A DNA stretch of 64,000 nt from an uncultured Verrucomicrobiae bacterium (GCA_963834385.1 CAWIBO010000002.1:704001-768000); one strand, 5' to 3'; counted from the first letter of the stretch, positions 11,216 to 38,976 are shown. Notes: generated from the sequence alone by a model not told the origin. Made by a program: numbers and translations.

Positions 11216-12200
11216 GTGACGCCCGGGACGCGGATCGATCGCCTCCTCGTACTGCGCGGCGGCGCCATCGGCGATTTCATCCTGACGCTGCCGGCGTTGC
11301 GCCTGCTGCGTGATGCCTTTCCCGAGGCCACGCTGGAATTGGTGGCCCATCCCCGCGTGGCCTGCCTCGCCGTCGGCCGCTTTTACGCCCGGGCGGCACG
11401 GTCACTGGAGGAGGGCCGGCTGGCCACTTTCTTCGTGGCGGGAAGCGAGCTGGACCCGGCATGGGTGGGACATTTCCGCCGTTTCGACCTTGTCCTGAGT
11501 TATCTCCCGGATGCGGACGGGGTCTTCGCAGACAACCTCCGCCGGGCAGGCGTGAAGCAGTTGCTCACGGGCCAGGGACCTGGGGTGGCGGCAAAGGAAG
11601 GAAACGTTGGGGTCCCGGAACATGCCGCCGCACATTTGGCGGCACCGCTGCGCGCGCTCGGCCTGACCTTGCCAGACCCGGCAGCCCGTCTTTTCCCGGA
11701 CGAGGCCGACCGCGCGGCGGCACGGAGGATTGTGACCGGCGGCGGCGAATCGTTGGTCGCCCTGCATCCGGGCAGTGGCAGCCGCGGGAAAAACTGGCCG
11801 TTGTCTTGCTGGATCCAGCTGGCCGAACATCTGCTGAAATTTACCGCGGGGCGCCTGCTCCTGGTGGGGGGCGAAGCGGAGGAAAGCGAGATCGCGACCC
11901 TCTTGCGCGTCCCTTCCGGGTGATCGCGTCGTGTCCGCCTGCCACCAGCCGCTTCCGGTGCTGGCGGCGCTGCTGGAGAATGCGTTCTTTCTCGGGCACG
12001 ACAGCGGCATCTCGCATCTGGCAGCGGCGGCGGGCGCGCGCTGTCTTCTCCTGTTCGGGCCGACTGACCCGGCCATCTGGGCGCCGGCCAATCCCGGGGT
12101 GACCGTCCTGGCCGCGCCTGACGGAAAGATGGAAAGGCTCGGACTCGAGCGGGTGAAAGAGGCGGTCTACGAACTGATGCGCATCGGCATCAGGACGTAA
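11216..12200 (+). CDS. Glycosyltransferase family 9 (heptosyltransferase-like); frameshift near 11915
   Basis: GGAIGDFILTLP and LHPGSG..KNWP; second frame GHDSGISHLAAA..LFGPTDP..WAP. Confidence 0.88.
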
Positions 12201-13264
12201 AGGAACGGCGTCTGGATCTTGAGCACGCCCGGGCTCATCTCATCAATCAGGTCGAGGAAGACTTCGTCCTCGGTCAGGTTGCGCAGCGGCGCCATGAGAA
12301 ATTCGGGGTTAAAGGCGATGGAGAACTCGCGTCCTTTGTAGATCACCGGGAGCGATTCCTTGGCCTCGCCCACCTCGGGCGTATTGGCGGTGATGTCGAT
12401 GTTGTTCTTGCTGAAGTTGAGCTTGATCGAGTTCGACTTGTCGCTGGCCAGGAGGGAAACGCGGCGGAGCGAGTTCAGGAAGGTCTCGCGCTCGAGCGTG
12501 ACCCGTTCCTTGGCCTCGGAGGGGATGACCTGCTTGTAGTTCGGGTAATTGCCTTCGATCAGTTTGGAAACGAGCAGGGTGTTGTTGAGATCAAAGGCAA
12601 TCTGGCCGGACCCGACGCTGACCTTGACCTCGCCATCGTCGGCCAGAAGGCGCGACAGTTCGGTGACGGCCTTGGTCGGGACAATGATGTCGGCCTCGTG
12701 GCTGCGCGGGAACTCCAGCTCGATGTCGACCATGGCGAGCCGGCGGCCGTCCGTCGCCACGAGGGTGAGCTTGTTTTCCTTGAAGGAGAAAAGGACGCCG
12801 TTGAGGACGTAGCGGGTCTCGTCCGTGGAGATGGCGTAGGAGGTTTTGCGCAGGCCGTCGCGCAGCTCCTTTTGCCGGATGGTGACCACCTTGGCATCCT
12901 CGAACTTCGGCAGGGGCGGAAACTCCTCTTCCGGCAGGCCGAGGATCTTGAAGAAGCTCTGGCCGCTCCGGATGGAGGCGGCGTTCTTGCCGTCGACATC
13001 CACCTGGATCTCGCTCGAAGGGAGCTCGCGGATGATGGTGAACAACCGGCGCGCCGGCAGGGTGGTCGAGCCTTCCTTGTCCACCTGCGCCTCAAAGCTG
13101 CCACGGACGCCGACGTCGAGATCGGTCGTGGTCAGGTGAACGACGTTGCCGTTCGCCTGCAAAAGGACGTTGGAAAGAATCGGCAGCGTGGTCCGGGTGC
13201 TGACGACGTTCTGGACCTGCTGGAGGCCCTCGAGAAGTTTCTCTTTGGTAACGCTAAATTTCAT
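12167..13264 (-). CDS. dnaN: DNA polymerase III beta clamp
   Basis: TTLPILSNVL, ETRYVLNG, VATDGRRLA, SKLIEGNYPNY, YVLMPMR. Confidence 0.98.
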   Translation of the reverse strand: MKFSVTKEKLLEGLQQVQNVVSTRTTLPILSNVLLQANGNVVHLTTTDLDVGVRGSFEAQVDKEGSTTLPARRLFTIIRELPSSEIQVDVDGKNAASIRSGQSFFKILGLPEEEFPPLPKFEDAKVVTIRQKELRDGLRKTSYAISTDETRYVLNGVLFSFKENKLTLVATDGRRLAMVDIELEFPRSHEADIIVPTKAVTELSRLLADDGEVKVSVGSGQIAFDLNNTLLVSKLIEGNYPNYKQVIPSEAKERVTLERETFLNSLRRVSLLASDKSNSIKLNFSKNNIDITANTPEVGEAKESLPVIYKGREFSIAFNPEFLMAPLRNLTEDEVFLDLIDEMSPGVLKIQTPFLYVLMPMRISS

Positions 13265-13359
13265 GTCCGGCGGCGAAAGCGACTAAGATGTAAGGCTTCG
13301 CATTTTGTTCGGCAACCGTATTCTCGATCTTGTGTGCGCGGCCTGGCAACCCCCCACGG

Positions 13360-14715
13360 CTAGCGGGCCAGGGCGCTGTCGATGAACGAGATGGTCTGCC
13401 GGACGCTGTCCTCCTCGCTCATCCGGCGTTTCACCAGTTTGCAGGCATGGAGGACGGTGCCATGGTCGCGCCCCCCGAAAGCGTCACCAATCTCGTTGAG
13501 CGAGGCCTTGGTCAGCTCCCGGGCCAGATACATCGCGACCTGGCGGGGAAAGGCGATGTTGGCCGGGCGCCGCTTGCTCGTCATGTCGGCCAGGCGCACG
13601 TCGAAGTGCTCGGCCACGCGCCGCTGGATCTGCTCGATCGTGACGGCATGACGGGCCTCCTCCTGGAGGATGTCCTTGAGCAGGTGCTCGACCACTTCAT
13701 TGGTCAGTTCCTTCCCGCTGAGGGAGGCAAAGGAAGCCACGCGCATGAGCGCGCCCTCGAGCCGGCGGACGTTGGTCCGGATGCGGGTGGCCAGGAAATC
13801 GAAGATCTCGTCGCGCAACGTGATCTGCAGGGCGCGCGCTTTCTTGCGGAGAATGGCCAGGCGGGTCTCGATGTCGGGCGGCTGCAGCTCGGCCGTGAGG
13901 CCCCACTCGAAACGGGAAACGAGGCGGTGCTCGAGGTTGGCGATCTCGGAAGCAGGCCGGTCGCTCGAGAGAACGATCTGCTTATGGCCATCAAAGAGAG
14001 CGTTGAAAGTGTGGAAGAACTCCTCCTGCGAGCGCTCCTTCCCGCCGAGGAACTGGATATCATCGATCAGGAGCAGGTCGGCCTGGCGGTAGCGTTTCCG
14101 GAACTTCACCAGCGTGCTGTGCTGGATGGCGTCGATGAATTCGTTGATGAAAAGTTCGCTCGAGAGATACATCACCCGGGCGTTCTTCTTTTTCGAGAGG
14201 ACGAACTGGCCGATGGCCTGCATGAGGTGGGTCTTGCCCAGTCCCACGCCGCCGTAGATGAAAAGCGGGTTGTAGGTGCGGGAGGGCGACTGCGCCACCG
14301 CCAGGCTGGCCGCGTGCGCGATCTCGTTCGTCGGCCCGACGACAAAGGAATCAAAGGTGTTGCGCGGGTTCAATCCGGCCGGGAGCACCGCGGGTTTGCC
14401 CGGCGCCGGCGCAGGATCTTCCCTTTCCTCCACCACCACGGCTGAGGCCTGTTCGGTCCCGTCACTTCCCTTGACCGCGAACCTGACGTGCCGCGGCGCG
14501 CCAAAGGCGGTCACGATCGCCGACTGCAGAGCCTGCATGTGGTTACTCTCGATCCAGAACTGGTAAATGTTGTTCGGCACGCAAAACGTCAGGCTGTCAT
14601 CGGTCGCGCCCGTGATCTGCACCGCCGAAAACCAGCGCTTGTAAGTGTCGGGGCTGACCTGGGGTTTTAACGCCGTCGACAGGCGCTGCCATTGTTGTGC
14701 AAACTTCTCGTCCAT
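13360..14715 (-). CDS. dnaA: Chromosomal replication initiator DnaA
   Basis: YNPLFIYGGVGLGKTHLM, LLIDDIQF, QEEFFHTFN, RQVAMYL..IGDAFGGRDHGTV. Confidence 0.98.
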   Translation of the reverse strand: MDEKFAQQWQRLSTALKPQVSPDTYKRWFSAVQITGATDDSLTFCVPNNIYQFWIESNHMQALQSAIVTAFGAPRHVRFAVKGSDGTEQASAVVVEEREDPAPAPGKPAVLPAGLNPRNTFDSFVVGPTNEIAHAASLAVAQSPSRTYNPLFIYGGVGLGKTHLMQAIGQFVLSKKKNARVMYLSSELFINEFIDAIQHSTLVKFRKRYRQADLLLIDDIQFLGGKERSQEEFFHTFNALFDGHKQIVLSSDRPASEIANLEHRLVSRFEWGLTAELQPPDIETRLAILRKKARALQITLRDEIFDFLATRIRTNVRRLEGALMRVASFASLSGKELTNEVVEHLLKDILQEEARHAVTIEQIQRRVAEHFDVRLADMTSKRRPANIAFPRQVAMYLARELTKASLNEIGDAFGGRDHGTVLHACKLVKRRMSEEDSVRQTISFIDSALAR

Positions 14716-14988
14716 GTGGAGTTGTTAACAGCGCTAAATCGCCCCGCAGCCTCTCTCCCCAGAGGGAAAATGACGCCGTCCGGTCACCGGCTCGGGAAAA
14801 ATTCGGGGCGTGCTTTCCGGCGCGACCGCCGGCCGCTGACGGGAAAAAAACGGGATATACGAGGGAAAACAGGCGGCGCGCCCCGGGAAAGAGGAAAGGA
14901 ACGCGACAAAGCGTGGAGAGAGAAGGGCGGCGCAGGAAGGCAGGCAGTGTTCCATGGTTGGTGGGTCGCTCCTGCAGTGGCCCCTCGT

Positions 14989-28143: not shown

Positions 28144-31100
28144 TCAATCCGTCACGATATTCACAAGCTTTTTCGGGACGACCACGACCTTGCGGGCGGT
28201 TTTGCCCTTGCCCTCAACCCATTCGCGCACCTTGGGGTTGGCCAGCGCGGCCTGCCGGTAATCTTCCTCCCCGACGGCCAGCGGCAGCCGGATGCGGTCA
28301 CGCAGCTTGCCATTCACCTGCAGGATGACCTCGACCTCATCCTCGACCAGGCAGGCGGGATCAAACTCCGGCCAGCGCTGATCGGTGATGGCGCCCGCAT
28401 CGCCGAAGCGTTCGGCCAGTCGTTCCCAAAGGTCGGAGGTGAGATGCGGAGCGAAGGGATTCAGAAGAACCAGGAGCGTGCGCAGGGAGCCAACCGGCCG
28501 CTTCTCGGCGCCCGTAAAGGCGTTTACGAACTGCATCATCTGCGCAATGGCGGTGTTAAAGGAAAGGGTCTCGATATCCTCCGTCACCTTTTTGATCGTG
28601 GCGTGCACCACCCGGCGCTGCGCCGGCTCCGGTGAACCTTCGTCCAAAGCGTCGGAAAGCACCCAGTCACCGGCCTGGTTCTCCTCCATGAAAAGCCGCC
28701 AGACCCGGGCAAGGAAGCGCGAGACGCCTTCCACCCCCTTCATGCTCCAGGGCTTCATCTGTTCGAGCGGCCCCATGAACATCTCGTAGCAGCGAAAGGC
28801 ATCGGCGCCGTGTTCGCGCACGACATCATCGGGATCGACCACGTTGCCCCAGCGCTTCGACATCTTGCGATTGTCCTCGCCCAGGATCATGCCCTGGTTG
28901 ACCAGCCGCTGGAACGGTTCCGCCTTCGAGAGATGGCCGAGATCGTAGAGCACCTTGTGCCAGAACCGGGCATAGAGCAGGTGCAAAACCGCGTGCTCCG
29001 TCCCGCCAATGTAAAGATCCACTCCGGCCGCCCCCTCGCCCCCCATCCAGTAGCGTTCGGCTTCGACGCCCACGAATCGGTCCTCGTTTCGCGGATCGCA
29101 AAAGCGCAGGTAATACCAGCACGATCCCGCCCATTGCGGCATGGTGTTGGTTTCCCGGGTCGCCTTCTCGGAATGGCGGATCCAGTCACGGGCTCGCGCC
29201 AGCGGCGGTTCGCCCGAGCCGGTGGGCTTGAAATCGTCTAGGGGCGGCGGCGAGAGCGGCAGATCGTCCGCCGGAAGGGCGCGGTGCCTCCCCTCTTCCC
29301 AGATGATCGGGAACGGTTCGCCCCAGTAACGCTGCCGGGAAAAAAGCCAGTCGCGCAGCTTGTAACGGACGTCGCGCCGCCCCCGGCCCTGCTCTTCCAG
29401 CCACCCGATGATCTTTTGTTGCGCCTCCGCCGTCGGCAGCCCGTCGATCAGCGGCGAATTGATCGCGACCCCGTCGCCGCTAAATACGGAGCCCGGGTTT
29501 TCAACGGAGCCCGGGTTTTCAACCCGGTCTTCACGGCTTGAAAAGCCGTGCTCCTAAAGTCGCGCTCCCAAACCGGTACGTCCTTGCCGGACAATCCGGC
29601 TTTCTCCGGGTTCATCGCGATGTACCTGCTTGAGAAAATCGTAATGTTCCTGCGACCGCACCAGCCGATCAAAATATTCCTCCTGCCAAAGCGATCCGCT
29701 TTGACCGATCCTCTTATTGATCTCCAGGGCCGAATGCCGCTTCCAGCTGTGAACCACGGCCGGAAGCGTCTCGTTTTCATGCAGGCGAACCAGCACATGC
29801 ACGTGATTGGGCATCACGCAGAACGCATGCAATTCGTAACGCTGGCCCTCAAAAAACCGTAACGCCTCGACAACGATCTGCGCACATTCCGGGCGGGCCA
29901 GCACGCAGCTGCCTGCGCCCGCGTCCAGCCACTCATCCAGCCGCGCGCCAAAACGCTCGTAGAACTCGTTCTCCTGTTCGGCCGTCCATGGCTCCGGGTG
30001 GCTTGCCAGCCAGCGTTCACGATCCTCCCGCAGCTCCGCGAGCTTCGGTTGCGGCAGGCTGTCGGCCAGACGCCAGGTGAGGAAGTAGAGGCTTTGGGCC
30101 TGCTGCCAATGCGGAAGGTTTCGTCGATGGATCTCGATCTCTTCGCGTGGATCGAGGAACCCCCTTTCGGAGCCCGGGTTTTCAACCCGGTCCTCGTCTT
30201 CACGGCTTGAAAAGCCGTGCTCCTTAGAAACCCCGTGCTCCGCAACGACCCGACGAATCGGAAGATCGAATTGACACGCGAATTCGAAATCCCGCTCGTC
30301 GTGCGCGGGCACGGCCATAATGGCCCCGGTGCCGTAACCCATCAAAACGTAATCCGCGATCCAGATCGGAATCTTCTCCTGGTTCACCGGGTTGATCGCG
30401 CAGGCCCCGAGGAAAACCCCGCTCTTTTCCTTCGCCAGATCGGTCCGCTCGAGATCGGATTTCGCGGCCACCTCAGCCCGATACCGGGCGACATCGCCCC
30501 GGCATTCCGCGGAGGTCAGTTGTTCCACCAGGGGATGTTCCGGCGCGAGCACCAGATACGTGGCCCCGTAGATCGTGTCGGGACGGGTGGTGAAAACCTC
30601 GATGAACTGATCAGGGTCCAGGGTGCGGGCTTCAGACCTTTCCCCTGAACCCTGGACACTGAACCCGGAAAACCTGATGACTGCGCCTTCACTCCGGCCA
30701 ATCCAGTTCTGCTGCAGCAACTTGATCCCGGCCGGCCAATCGAGCGGCTCCAGCTCCTCCGCGAGGCGATCCCCATAGGCGGTGATCCGCAGCATCCATT
30801 GCCGCATCGGCCGGCGCACCACCGGAAATCCACCCACCTCGCTTTTGCCGTCGATCACCTCCTCGTTGGCGAGGACGGTCCCGAGCTCCGGGCACCAGTT
30901 CACCGGCACATCCGCGACATAGGCGAGGCGCACCCCGTCCGGATCATCCCCGTCGTAAGTGTCGATTGGCTCGGCCTTGCGCGTGGCCGGGTTGAACCAG
31001 GAATGATAAAGCTGGAGAAAAATCCATTGCGTCCAACGATAAAAATCCGGCTCCGCCGTGCTGACCTCGCGGCTCCAGTCGTAGGAGAATCCCAGCCGCT

Positions 31101-31467
31101 TCAACTGGCCCTTGAACTTCGCAATGTTGGCCCGGGTGGTGATGGCCGGATGCTGCCCGGTCTTGATGGCATACTGCTCGGCCGGCAGGCCAAAGGCGTC
31201 CCAGCCCATCGGATGCAGGACGTTGAAACCGCGCATGCGTTTGTAGCGCGCCACGATGTCGGTCGCGGTGTAGCCTTCCGGATGCCCGACGTGAAGACCG
31301 GCGCCACTCGGATAAGGAAACATGTCGAGCACGTAATACTTCGGCCGGGTCGCGTCGAAACCCGGCTCCCCGGGATTGAGGGCGCGGAACGTTCCCTCCG
31401 CCTCCCAGCGCGCCTGCCAGCGCGCATCGATTTCGTCGAAAGGATAAGGTTTGCGGCGTTCGCTCAT
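28144..31467 (-). CDS. leuS: Leucine--tRNA ligase carrying an internal RAYT/REP insert (apparent in-frame TAG at 29554-29556 between two compensating indels)
   Basis: [50 protein letters not shown]; after the insert [34 protein letters not shown]. Confidence 0.95.
29488..29554. repeat. REP cluster downstream of RAYT: partial REP plus inverted REP pair
   Basis: GGAGCCCGGGTTTTCAAC + GGAGCCCGGGTTTTCAACCCGG + CACGGCTTGAAAAGCCGTGCTCC. Confidence 0.9.
30169..30241. repeat. REP cluster upstream of RAYT: inverted REP pair plus partial REP
   Basis: GGAGCCCGGGTTTTCAACCCGG (30169-30190), CACGGCTTGAAAAGCCGTGCTCC (30201-30223), AAACCCCGTGCTCC (30228-30241). Confidence 0.9.
30611..30669. repeat. Heptamer-built imperfect hairpin inside the leuS coding sequence
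   Basis: TCAGGGT-CCAGGGT-GCGGGCT-TCAG ... CTGAACC-CTGGACA-CTGAACC-CGGA; arms match 19/25. Confidence 0.7.
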
Positions 31468-37698: not shown

Positions 37699-37761
37699 GG
37701 TGCCAGGGTTCAGACCCGCTGCACCCTCTTGTCTGAATCCTGAACCCCGAACCCCGAACCC
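37699..37761. repeat. Heptamer-built hairpin in the metK leader
   Basis: GGTGCCAGGGTTCAGA ... TCTGAATCCTGAACCCCGAACCCCGAACC. Confidence 0.7.
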
Positions 37762-37769
37762 GCTTTTCT

Positions 37770-38976
37770 ATGTCCCGTCGTTTTATTTTTTCCTCTGAGT
37801 CCGTCGGCGAAGGTCATCCCGACAAGGTTTGCGACACCATCTCCGACGCCATCCTCGACGCCTGCCTCGCCCAGGATAAGACCGCGCGCGTCGCCTGCGA
37901 GACCTTCGCCAAGAGCCACACCGTCATCGTCGGCGGTGAAATCACCATCCCCAATCTGCCGCAGGGCAAAGCGCTCGAGATCGATCATTCCGATCGACAG
38001 CATCGTGCGCGATGCCGTGCGCGAGATCGGTTACGTGAATGACGACGACGTTTTTCACGCCGACAAGATCGACATCCAGAACATCATCACGAACCAGAGC
38101 GCCGACATCGTCGCAGGGCGTCGATGCAGACCGCCGCGGAAGGCAAGGGACACGCCGAGCAGGGCGCCGGCGACCAGGGTTTGATGTTTGGCTTTGCCTG
38201 CGACGAGACGCCCGAGCTGATGCCGGCGCCGATCATGTTTGCGCATCGCCTCGGCCGCGAGTTGACCCGCATCCGCAAGAGCGGCAAGGTGCGCCTGGCT
38301 GCGGCCCGATGCGAAGTCGCAGGTCTCCGTCGTTTACGAAGAACAACAAGCCGGTCGGCATCTCGAATGTGGTCATTTCCACCCAGCACGCGGCCGACGT
38401 GAAGCACCCGGAGATCAAAGAATTCTGCATCGAAGAAGTCATTCGCAAGGTGCTCCCGCGGCTCGATGATCGAATGGCACGACTGAGTTTCTCATCAATC
38501 CGACCGGGCGGTTCGTCGTCGGCGGACCGCAGGGCGACACCGGCCTGACCGGGCGCAAGATCATCGTCGATAGTTACGGCGGCATGGGCCGTCACGGCGG
38601 CGGCGCGTTCTCCGGGAAGGACCCGAGCAAGGTCGACCGCAGCGCCGCCTACATGGGTCGCTGGGTGGCGAAGAACGTCGTCGCGGCCGGGCTCGCGCGG
38701 CGTTGCGAAGTCCAGTTCGCCTACGCCATCGGCCATCCGCAGCCGGTCAGCGTGCACATCAACACCTTCCTCACGAACACCGTCGACGAAGAGATCATCG
38801 AGAAAGCCGTCAAGAAAGTCTTCTCCTTCAAGCCGGCCGACATCGTCGAGCAGCTCGACCTGCTCCGCCCGATTTACCTCAAGACCACCAACTACGGCCA
38901 CTTCGGCAAGGACGATCCCGAGATCACCTGGGAACGCACCGATAAGGCTGAGGAGCTGAAAGCCGCGGCGCGCTAG
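37770..38976 (+). CDS. metK: S-adenosylmethionine synthetase (several frameshifts)
   Basis: [48 protein letters not shown] spread across shifting frames. Confidence 0.95.

Follow-up and report, generated by a model that had tools for sequence, protein, structure and literature searches.

A 64,000-nt stretch of DNA from an uncultured Verrucomicrobiae bacterium (GCA_963834385.1 CAWIBO010000002.1:704001-768000; hereafter the window) contains leuS, the gene for leucyl-tRNA synthetase (LeuRS), with a 754-nt insert at 29488-30241. By sequence inspection, the insert is a gene for a REP-associated tyrosine transposase (RAYT) bracketed by two doublets of repetitive extragenic palindromes (REPs), one on each side. 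This leuS is the only one in the genome, its insertion site is empty in relatives, the same arrangement recurs in other genomes and in other genes, and the catalytic motifs of the transposase have been kept. We consider it probable that the insert is a REPtron (a RAYT gene with its REPs) that occupies, in the leuS frame, a variable loop of the CP1 (connective peptide 1) editing domain and is made as an internal domain of LeuRS, that a TAG codon and a frameshift in the assembled sequence are assembly errors, and that RAYTs of this clade are habitually embedded in this way, with the frame held open by selection on the host gene. In the order of leuS transcription, the parts of the locus are as follows.

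30242-31467, minus strand: leuS 5' part, LeuRS residues 1-408, with the ATG at 31465-31467 and ending PIRRVV plus A; Pfam tRNA-synt_1 and PF13603
30224-30241, minus strand: outer partial REP b', made up of the foot and half a hairpin and translated as EHGVSK; it repeats the start of REP b in tandem over 18 nt, with 14 of 18 positions identical to 30206-30223, and matches the motif with 2 mismatches
30201-30223, minus strand: REP b of the doublet on the leuS 5' side, with GGAG foot, 8-bp stem and 3-nt loop; motif and fold
30169-30191, plus strand: REP a of the doublet on the leuS 5' side, its foot facing the RAYT gene; motif and fold
29627-30168, minus strand: main RAYT reading frame, in the leuS frame, with LPHW at 30106-30120 and the HUH motif as MPNHVHVLV at 29788-29814
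29557-29626, minus strand: RAYT tail, with an 11-residue tyrosine motif at 29592-29624 that is readable only when shifted by one base
29554-29556, minus strand: in-frame TAG of the assembly, following the RAYT; removed by an extra base in one short-read contig
29532-29554, minus strand: REP b of the doublet on the leuS 3' side, its foot facing the RAYT gene; motif and fold
29506-29528, plus strand: REP a of the doublet on the leuS 3' side; motif and fold
29488-29505, plus strand: outer partial REP a', which repeats the first 18 nt of REP a in tandem (18 of 18 identical) and is read as VENPGS
28144-29487, minus strand: leuS 3' part, 447 residues plus stop; first in-frame ATG, GTG or TTG only at 29142

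Two copies each of REP a (GGAGCCCGGGTTTTCAACCCGG) and REP b (CACGGCTTGAAAAGCCGTGCTCC) flank the RAYT gene. REP a has a GGAG foot, a stem of 7-8 bp and a 3-nt loop, while REP b, which is inverted relative to it, has a GGAG foot, an 8-bp stem and a 3-nt loop. A direct-repeat search found the REP b copies and their flank to be identical between the doublets at 29 of 29 nt, and the ends of the insert form a 40-nt inverted repeat that is 83% complementary. The motif GGAGC[AC]CGG[CG]TTTTCAA matches the window six times against an expectation of 0.06, a count that none of 100 shuffles reaches. Singly and as doublets, the REP units all fold into DNA hairpins (z of -3.3 to -5.9), and no more than 1 of 200 shuffles folds equally well. 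The original prediction, made from the sequence alone, had described the same REP pair at both ends together with outer partial copies, and this anatomy is borne out; it had also assigned the doublets peptides of 24 and 22 residues in the leuS frame, both of which are reproduced by translation. Its further statement that the doublets are stop-free in the host frame comes with the caveat that the TAG of the assembly directly precedes the second peptide, overlapping the GGAG foot of the REP b at 29532-29554 by one base. Given that a transposase gene stands between the doublets, we regard the repeats as the ends of a REPtron that was inserted whole and not as free REPs.

The 612 nt between the doublets share strand and reading frame with leuS and encode a Y1 HUH transposase. 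It matches Pfam Y1_Tnp (PF01797) with 39.7 bits against a cut-off of 23, and its best NCBIfam family is NF047646 (REP_Tyr_transpos) with 61.9 bits, which is under the cut-off of 80; its relatives score 75-80. The E. coli TnpA-REP structure (PDB 4ER8) matches a homologue with an E-value of 5.6e-4. Among 25 aligned RAYT copies the HUH histidines are invariant and the tyrosine of the YI..NP motif is nearly so. The embedded gene lacks a start codon (ATG, GTG or TTG); it begins three residues past the foot of REP a, which is where the N-terminus of its free-standing relatives lies. It is a single copy in the genome, with the remaining tblastn matches being at most 52% identical and confined to partial stretches.

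The host gene is likewise the only leuS in this 2.9-Mb, 5-contig genome of a soil bacterium, other tblastn matches being class-I paralogues of 25-31% identity. The insertion site lies within the LeuRS editing domain PF13603, of which the leuS 5' part covers positions 1-147 of 185. Mapping on solved LeuRS chains places it in the CP1 editing domain, where it corresponds approximately to T. thermophilus residues 360-380; the alignment has gaps there, and the site falls inside constructs of isolated editing domains. This mapping together with PF13603 rules out the site of the split LeuRS or of the leucine-specific domain. In the genomes of nine relatives the leuS flanks are 26-103 nt apart, i.e. 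the insert is absent, and the aligned LeuRS of other genera have a linker of 8-12 residues at this position in 6 of 6 cases. The rows L005 and L009 do not enter this alignment because their frames are broken within the stretch retrieved, nor does L007, a valS. Of the six rows used, L002 and L008 belong to unpublished genomes (G007 and G014), and the other four are enough to support the claim.

Six other leuS genes, from Verrucomicrobiales, Akkermansiaceae and Haloferula records, hold a RAYT as one continuous frame, and all seven leuS::RAYT genes share the same linker site. A YI..NP-type tyrosine motif is in frame in all six others, whereas it is one base out of frame in the window assembly. 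The GGAG foot also flanks the leuS::RAYT of an Akkermansiaceae record; in two of the six other elements the REPs are single and inverted, point their foot outward and lack the 18-nt outer copies. In a tree of 109 RAYTs the nearest row to the window RAYT is a Verrucomicrobiales leuS copy, and a single origin of the leuS embedding may be considered compatible with this tree. We modeled the structure of one related leuS::RAYT from a 26-row alignment and used the model for the RAYT part and the linkers only, not for domain placement. In 10-residue blocks the RAYT has a pLDDT (predicted local distance difference test score) of 73-94 over residues 431-600, with linkers below 50 on either side.

We propose a fusion in which the RAYT would be transcribed and translated together with leuS as an internal domain of LeuRS. 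The RAYT lacks both a start codon and a ribosome site and, in the cell, most likely lacks a stop as well; each REP doublet would be read as a floppy linker of ∼20 residues. Selection on the host LeuRS would then keep the whole leuS::RAYT frame open, because the essential enzyme would be lost with any nonsense or frameshift mutation that strikes the transposase.

Embedding of this kind is not confined to leuS. In a protein search of 201 genomes of the family, 125 had a match at E ≤1e-10, and among the 104 full-length RAYT matches listed, 82 lie in open frames of at least 500 aa, 60 of them in frames of at least 1000 aa. For 50 of the 104 loci we assigned hosts by eye from conserved motifs and not by profile. 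By this assignment 18 RAYTs are in carB, 10 in valS, 4 in purL, 3 in clpB (L204, L205, L221), 3 in a tsaC/sua5-like gene (L216-L218), 1 in a rarA-like gene (rarA/mgsA look, L220), 1 in leuS (that of the window) and 1 in an unknown host; the other 9 are free-standing. A second search, with one genome per prokaryote species, gave 44 of the 80 best loci with at least 100 open codons on both sides of the RAYT. When the hosts of the 48 longest frames from this search were named by Pfam, they were carB (10), restriction-modification enzymes (8), leuS (6), valS (5), priA (2), DinG-like helicase (2), radical-SAM (2), xseA (1), mqnA-like (1), adenosine deaminase (1) and other or unnamed genes (10). Judged by record title, these frames span Verrucomicrobiota, Kiritimatiellota, Lentisphaerota, Bacteroidota, Chlorobiota, Pseudomonadota and others.

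On the tree of 109 RAYTs the host-gene label needs 25 changes, as opposed to 63 when shuffled. The carB RAYTs form one well-supported clade, from which a single carB row is missing and into which a single mqnA-hosted row falls, and the valS and purL RAYTs share another, with one valS row outside. In genomes with a valS::RAYT, valS is single copy in 5 of 5, and in 4 of these one uninterrupted open frame spans both valS and the RAYT; the REP flanking one valS::RAYT is present 87 times in its genome, 19 of these copies being identical, and 0 times in the control. Together with the kept catalytic motifs, these findings may be read as signs that embedded copies work. In one valS::RAYT (L012, G129:C4) the frame breaks shortly past the RAYT, leaving open frames of 713 and 447 aa; the break may be genuine or stem from another indel of assembly. 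Type I restriction R-subunit genes of three phyla (L055, L067 and L079, from Rhodocyclaceae, Chlorobium and Verrucomicrobiota) carry closely related in-frame RAYTs that form one well-supported clade, which suggests lateral transfer of host gene and insert together. The genome of the window holds a second case in alaS (L195, G000:C3:123400-127200), where an in-frame RAYT of another subfamily (NF047646, 80.4 bits) is flanked by inverted GTAG-foot REPs; the N-terminal part of the same gene contains a separate in-frame REPIN (a REP doublet forming hairpins) of the REP family that flanks the alaS RAYT. The arrangement is thus the same as in leuS, with a different RAYT subfamily, a different REP foot and a different host gene.

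Taken as it is assembled, the window sequence tells another story, in which the frameshift in the RAYT tail is real and the TAG interrupts leuS, so that LeuRS would be a pseudogene, a protein in two pieces or dependent on readthrough. This account takes the sequence at face value, and the window RAYT does sit on a long branch; the two indels also compensate each other, so that the downstream part of leuS is back in frame. Against it stands the fact that leuS is single copy. The C-terminal half offers no ATG, GTG or TTG before 29142, a start at that position would lose conserved motifs, and the sole start near an AGGAG is a GTG in another frame, which rules out re-initiation after the TAG. TAG recoding is ruled out as well, since TAG terminates 14 of the 35 Pfam-supported open reading frames of the window and is the commonest normal stop.

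Alignment with the six other leuS-embedded RAYTs places a surplus base at 29625-29626 (CC on the plus strand), right after the Q codon of FLKQ, and a second, opposite indel is then required for the return to the leuS frame. Four soil-metagenome runs from one study contain 5-13% of the words and leave most of the RAYT (29632-30058) uncovered; no RNA run was among those listed as containing them. One 151-nt contig of run X3 (record 23, depth 2) covers 29491-29625 and has an extra base behind 29555. This base removes the TAG and joins the frame of the RAYT tail to the leuS frame. Other genes of this genome have also been broken in the assembly: in metK (37737-38973, plus strand, in the window) some five frame switches are needed to read the gene, conserved peptide segments being present in every frame, which suggests clusters of single-base indel errors, and alaS has two frame changes in its host parts with perfectly conserved peptide segments in each frame. 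A search of metagenome contigs for close relatives gave 70 loci, the best being 55% identical, and none of these was useful for settling the indels. We consider it likely that the leuS::RAYT frame is interrupted by two assembly indels and is continuous in the cell, and rather unlikely that the gene is broken as assembled. The apparent break of an essential gene at this locus is accordingly best read as an assembly artefact.

Several observations nevertheless weigh against an intact, translated fusion. As assembled, leuS is broken, with both an in-frame TAG and a tyrosine motif that is one base out of frame. The correcting base comes from a single depth-2 contig that has three other differences from the window and may represent another strain; because of this depth and these differences we take the contig as a hint and not as proof. 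The second indel site (29625-29626) lies under no read in the runs examined. The valS, purL and carB genes of this genome have no frame breaks, indicating that assembly errors are patchy and not general. The long branch of the window RAYT (0.56-0.77) and its score under the NCBIfam cut-off are what would be expected of a decaying copy. The structure model of the related leuS::RAYT is poor overall, with a mean pLDDT of 63 and a pTM (predicted template modeling score) of 0.31. Finally, the long branch together with the small number of REP units in this genome, only 13, makes activity of the RAYT here doubtful.

The insert might also be removed before the enzyme works, by a precise excision of the DNA by the RAYT in some cells of the population, by RNA processing at the paired ends or by an intein-like splicing of the protein. 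The long inverted repeat at the insert ends is in keeping with such a removal, as is the precise excision carried out by Y1 transposases of the IS200/IS605 family. Such a removal would make an open frame unnecessary, yet all six of the other leuS::RAYT genes and 82 of the 104 family matches have one. There is no intein-type Pfam match at E ≤0.01, the junction residues are not Cys or Ser with His-Asn, and no same-strain read with an empty site was seen in the runs examined. One read joint does connect 29364 to 30290 (side 20, one contig), and it probably derives from the uninterrupted leuS of another organism. Because the open frame is not needed and the intein features are missing, we regard removal at the DNA, RNA or protein level as very improbable.

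The original prediction put the emphasis elsewhere, on the REPs. It proposed that this REP family is itself compatible with insertion into coding sequence, that solo REPINs may accordingly turn up as peptides in other proteins, and that the partial end copies may record the mechanism of insertion. A structural scan of the whole genome for units with GGAG, a stem ending in TT and a 3-nt loop gave 13 well-formed units. They are spread over the 6 loci listed here, of which 4 are intergenic.

Window 29488-30241: leuS, intragenic, with its two doublets
C5:174873-174919 (L191 1174-1220): one doublet, in frame in a DUF255/YyaL-like gene
C2:856377-856586 (L192 878-1087): a tandem duplication that lies directly behind a gene and contains two doublets
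Remaining three loci, all intergenic: two doublets plus a single unit

Two observations in this genome favor the idea of REPs being read through in proteins. The doublet in the DUF255/YyaL-like gene, which encodes a thioredoxin-domain protein, adds 11-12 residues that are missing in 6 of 7 relatives, the seventh having a different insert in the same loop. At leuS, too, a palindromic unit is read in frame inside a gene whose homologues lack the insert, and intergenic units of the type are present at C2:856377-856586, C5:597604-597654 and C3:6426-6448. The alaS REPIN, of another family, is also in frame, and intragenic REPs have been published (PMC3733652). The more specific expectations were not upheld. 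In a six-frame translation of the whole genome the three predicted peptides, STAFQAV among them, occur only at leuS, and a genome-wide search finds the exact leuS REPs at leuS only. The proposed tally of intragenic and intergenic copies yields one other intragenic locus, but four of the six loci are intergenic and the DUF255 doublet is read in another frame than the leuS doublets. Across the 3' doublet 4 of 6 frames are open and across the 5' doublet 3 of 6, which indicates that no special coding adaptation of the REPs is needed.

With respect to the end copies, these are 18-nt tandem repeats that are missing from the other leuS::RAYT elements with single inverted REPs. The spacer between REP a and REP b is 6 nt longer in the doublet on the leuS 5' side than in that on the 3' side, and the length differences among repeat copies are 18, 18 and 6 nt. 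As all three are multiples of three, they are compatible with slippage filtered by the reading frame, which fits the end copies as well as a record of insertion does. We thus consider a REP family adapted to coding insertion unlikely, and a family-wide habit of embedding among the RAYTs appears to us of more interest than any property of these REPs.

Hairpins after GGAG are not enriched as a class in this genome, as a scan with 8 feet gave 420 per 32195 sites, similar to controls; only specific families are enriched. The tandem duplication at C2:856377-856586, of ∼147 nt, repeats the last codons of the gene together with a leuS-type REP doublet. A larger GGAG-foot REP family of the form GGAGGGAC..GCTTCCGC..GTCC has 69 units in the genome, often as inverted pairs 2-3 nt apart, and another abundant repeat containing GGTAGGGCGAGACTCCGTCGAGCC has ∼45-60 copies.

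REPtrons have been described as RAYT (or TnpA-REP) genes with REPs or REPINs on either side (Nunvar 2010, PMC2817692; Bertels & Rainey 2011, PMC3116915). The leuS insert resembles them in being a single-copy Y1 HUH transposase gene with an HUH motif and with hairpins that have a tetranucleotide foot, and its doublets resemble REPINs; a YI..NP-type motif is there as well, though one base out of frame as assembled. Cognate REPs of a REPtron are expected in many dispersed copies, and this type has 13 units at 6 loci. It differs in that known REPtrons are free-standing between genes, whereas the leuS insert lies in frame in an essential gene without a start and most likely without a stop of its own; in addition its foot is GGAG and not GTAG, and its RAYT has an N-terminal extension of ∼85 residues and scores under the NCBIfam RAYT cut-off. 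An autonomous insertion sequence (IS) of the IS200/IS605 family would be expected in several near-identical copies with a start and a stop, unlike the leuS insert, which is single copy and has no in-frame start.

Repeats alone are known to be read through in frame. Di Nocera et al. (2013, PMC3733652) report intragenic REPs that form 20-30 extra residues in loops of housekeeping proteins, cite Rickettsia palindromic elements as repeats inside proteins and, in their survey of GTAG repeats, give the highest intragenic count for O. terrae, a verrucomicrobium. The leuS doublets share with these elements the in-frame reading of a palindromic repeat in a loop of a housekeeping protein, but between the leuS repeats there is a complete transposase gene. 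In TnpA-REP subclass 2.4 the tnpA-REP gene itself contains in-frame REPs (Quentin et al. 2018, PMC6006769), so that REP and RAYT coding sequence are in one reading frame as they are in leuS; there the REP is inside the transposase gene, whereas here transposase and REPs are both inside a host gene. The same paper tabulates the catalytic tyrosine motif YI..NP near the RAYT C-terminus, and its large survey discarded unexpectedly long RAYT proteins as fusions or errors. Within the full texts searched, supplements aside, we found no description of RAYTs in frame inside host genes (including PMC3733652, PMC6006769, PMC8266576 and PMC5581495). A RAYT with REP ends nested in frame in a host gene is therefore an arrangement for which we found no published description, in-frame REPs alone being already known.

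A parallel can be drawn with inteins that carry homing endonucleases, as these too are selfish DNA enzymes nested in frame in conserved essential genes, with the same site filled in distant lineages and with lineages specific to a host gene. Inteins are recognized by a Hint domain, by Cys, Ser or Thr at their start and by His-Asn plus Cys, Ser or Thr at their end. The leuS insert has neither a Hint domain (Pfam, E ≤0.01) nor splice residues, its junctions being VVA-EHG and PGS-VFS, and nothing suggests that it leaves the protein.

RAYTs are single-copy, vertically inherited transposases that have persisted for long. Clade-wide embedding would offer a mechanism for this persistence, with host purifying selection guarding the transposase frame. 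It is tempting to speculate further that in this clade the RAYTs survive by functioning as domains of essential enzymes, expressed along with a housekeeping gene and serving live REPIN populations in trans, a possibility that we hold tentatively and at somewhat less than even chances. If this is the case, the usual inactivating mutations could not remove an embedded RAYT without killing the cell, and the lineages specific to leuS, valS/purL and carB would reflect either very old vertical descent or an intein-like homing to a preferred site; the same would apply to the filling of one leuS site in both Chthoniobacterales-like and Verrucomicrobiales genomes. For annotation, embedded RAYT genes are easily mislabeled as fusions, pseudogenes or errors.

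With regard to the location of the locus, dnaN and dnaA are found at 12170-14724 of the window (minus strand), ∼15 kb from the insert and on the same strand as leuS. Their proximity places leuS near the probable replication origin.

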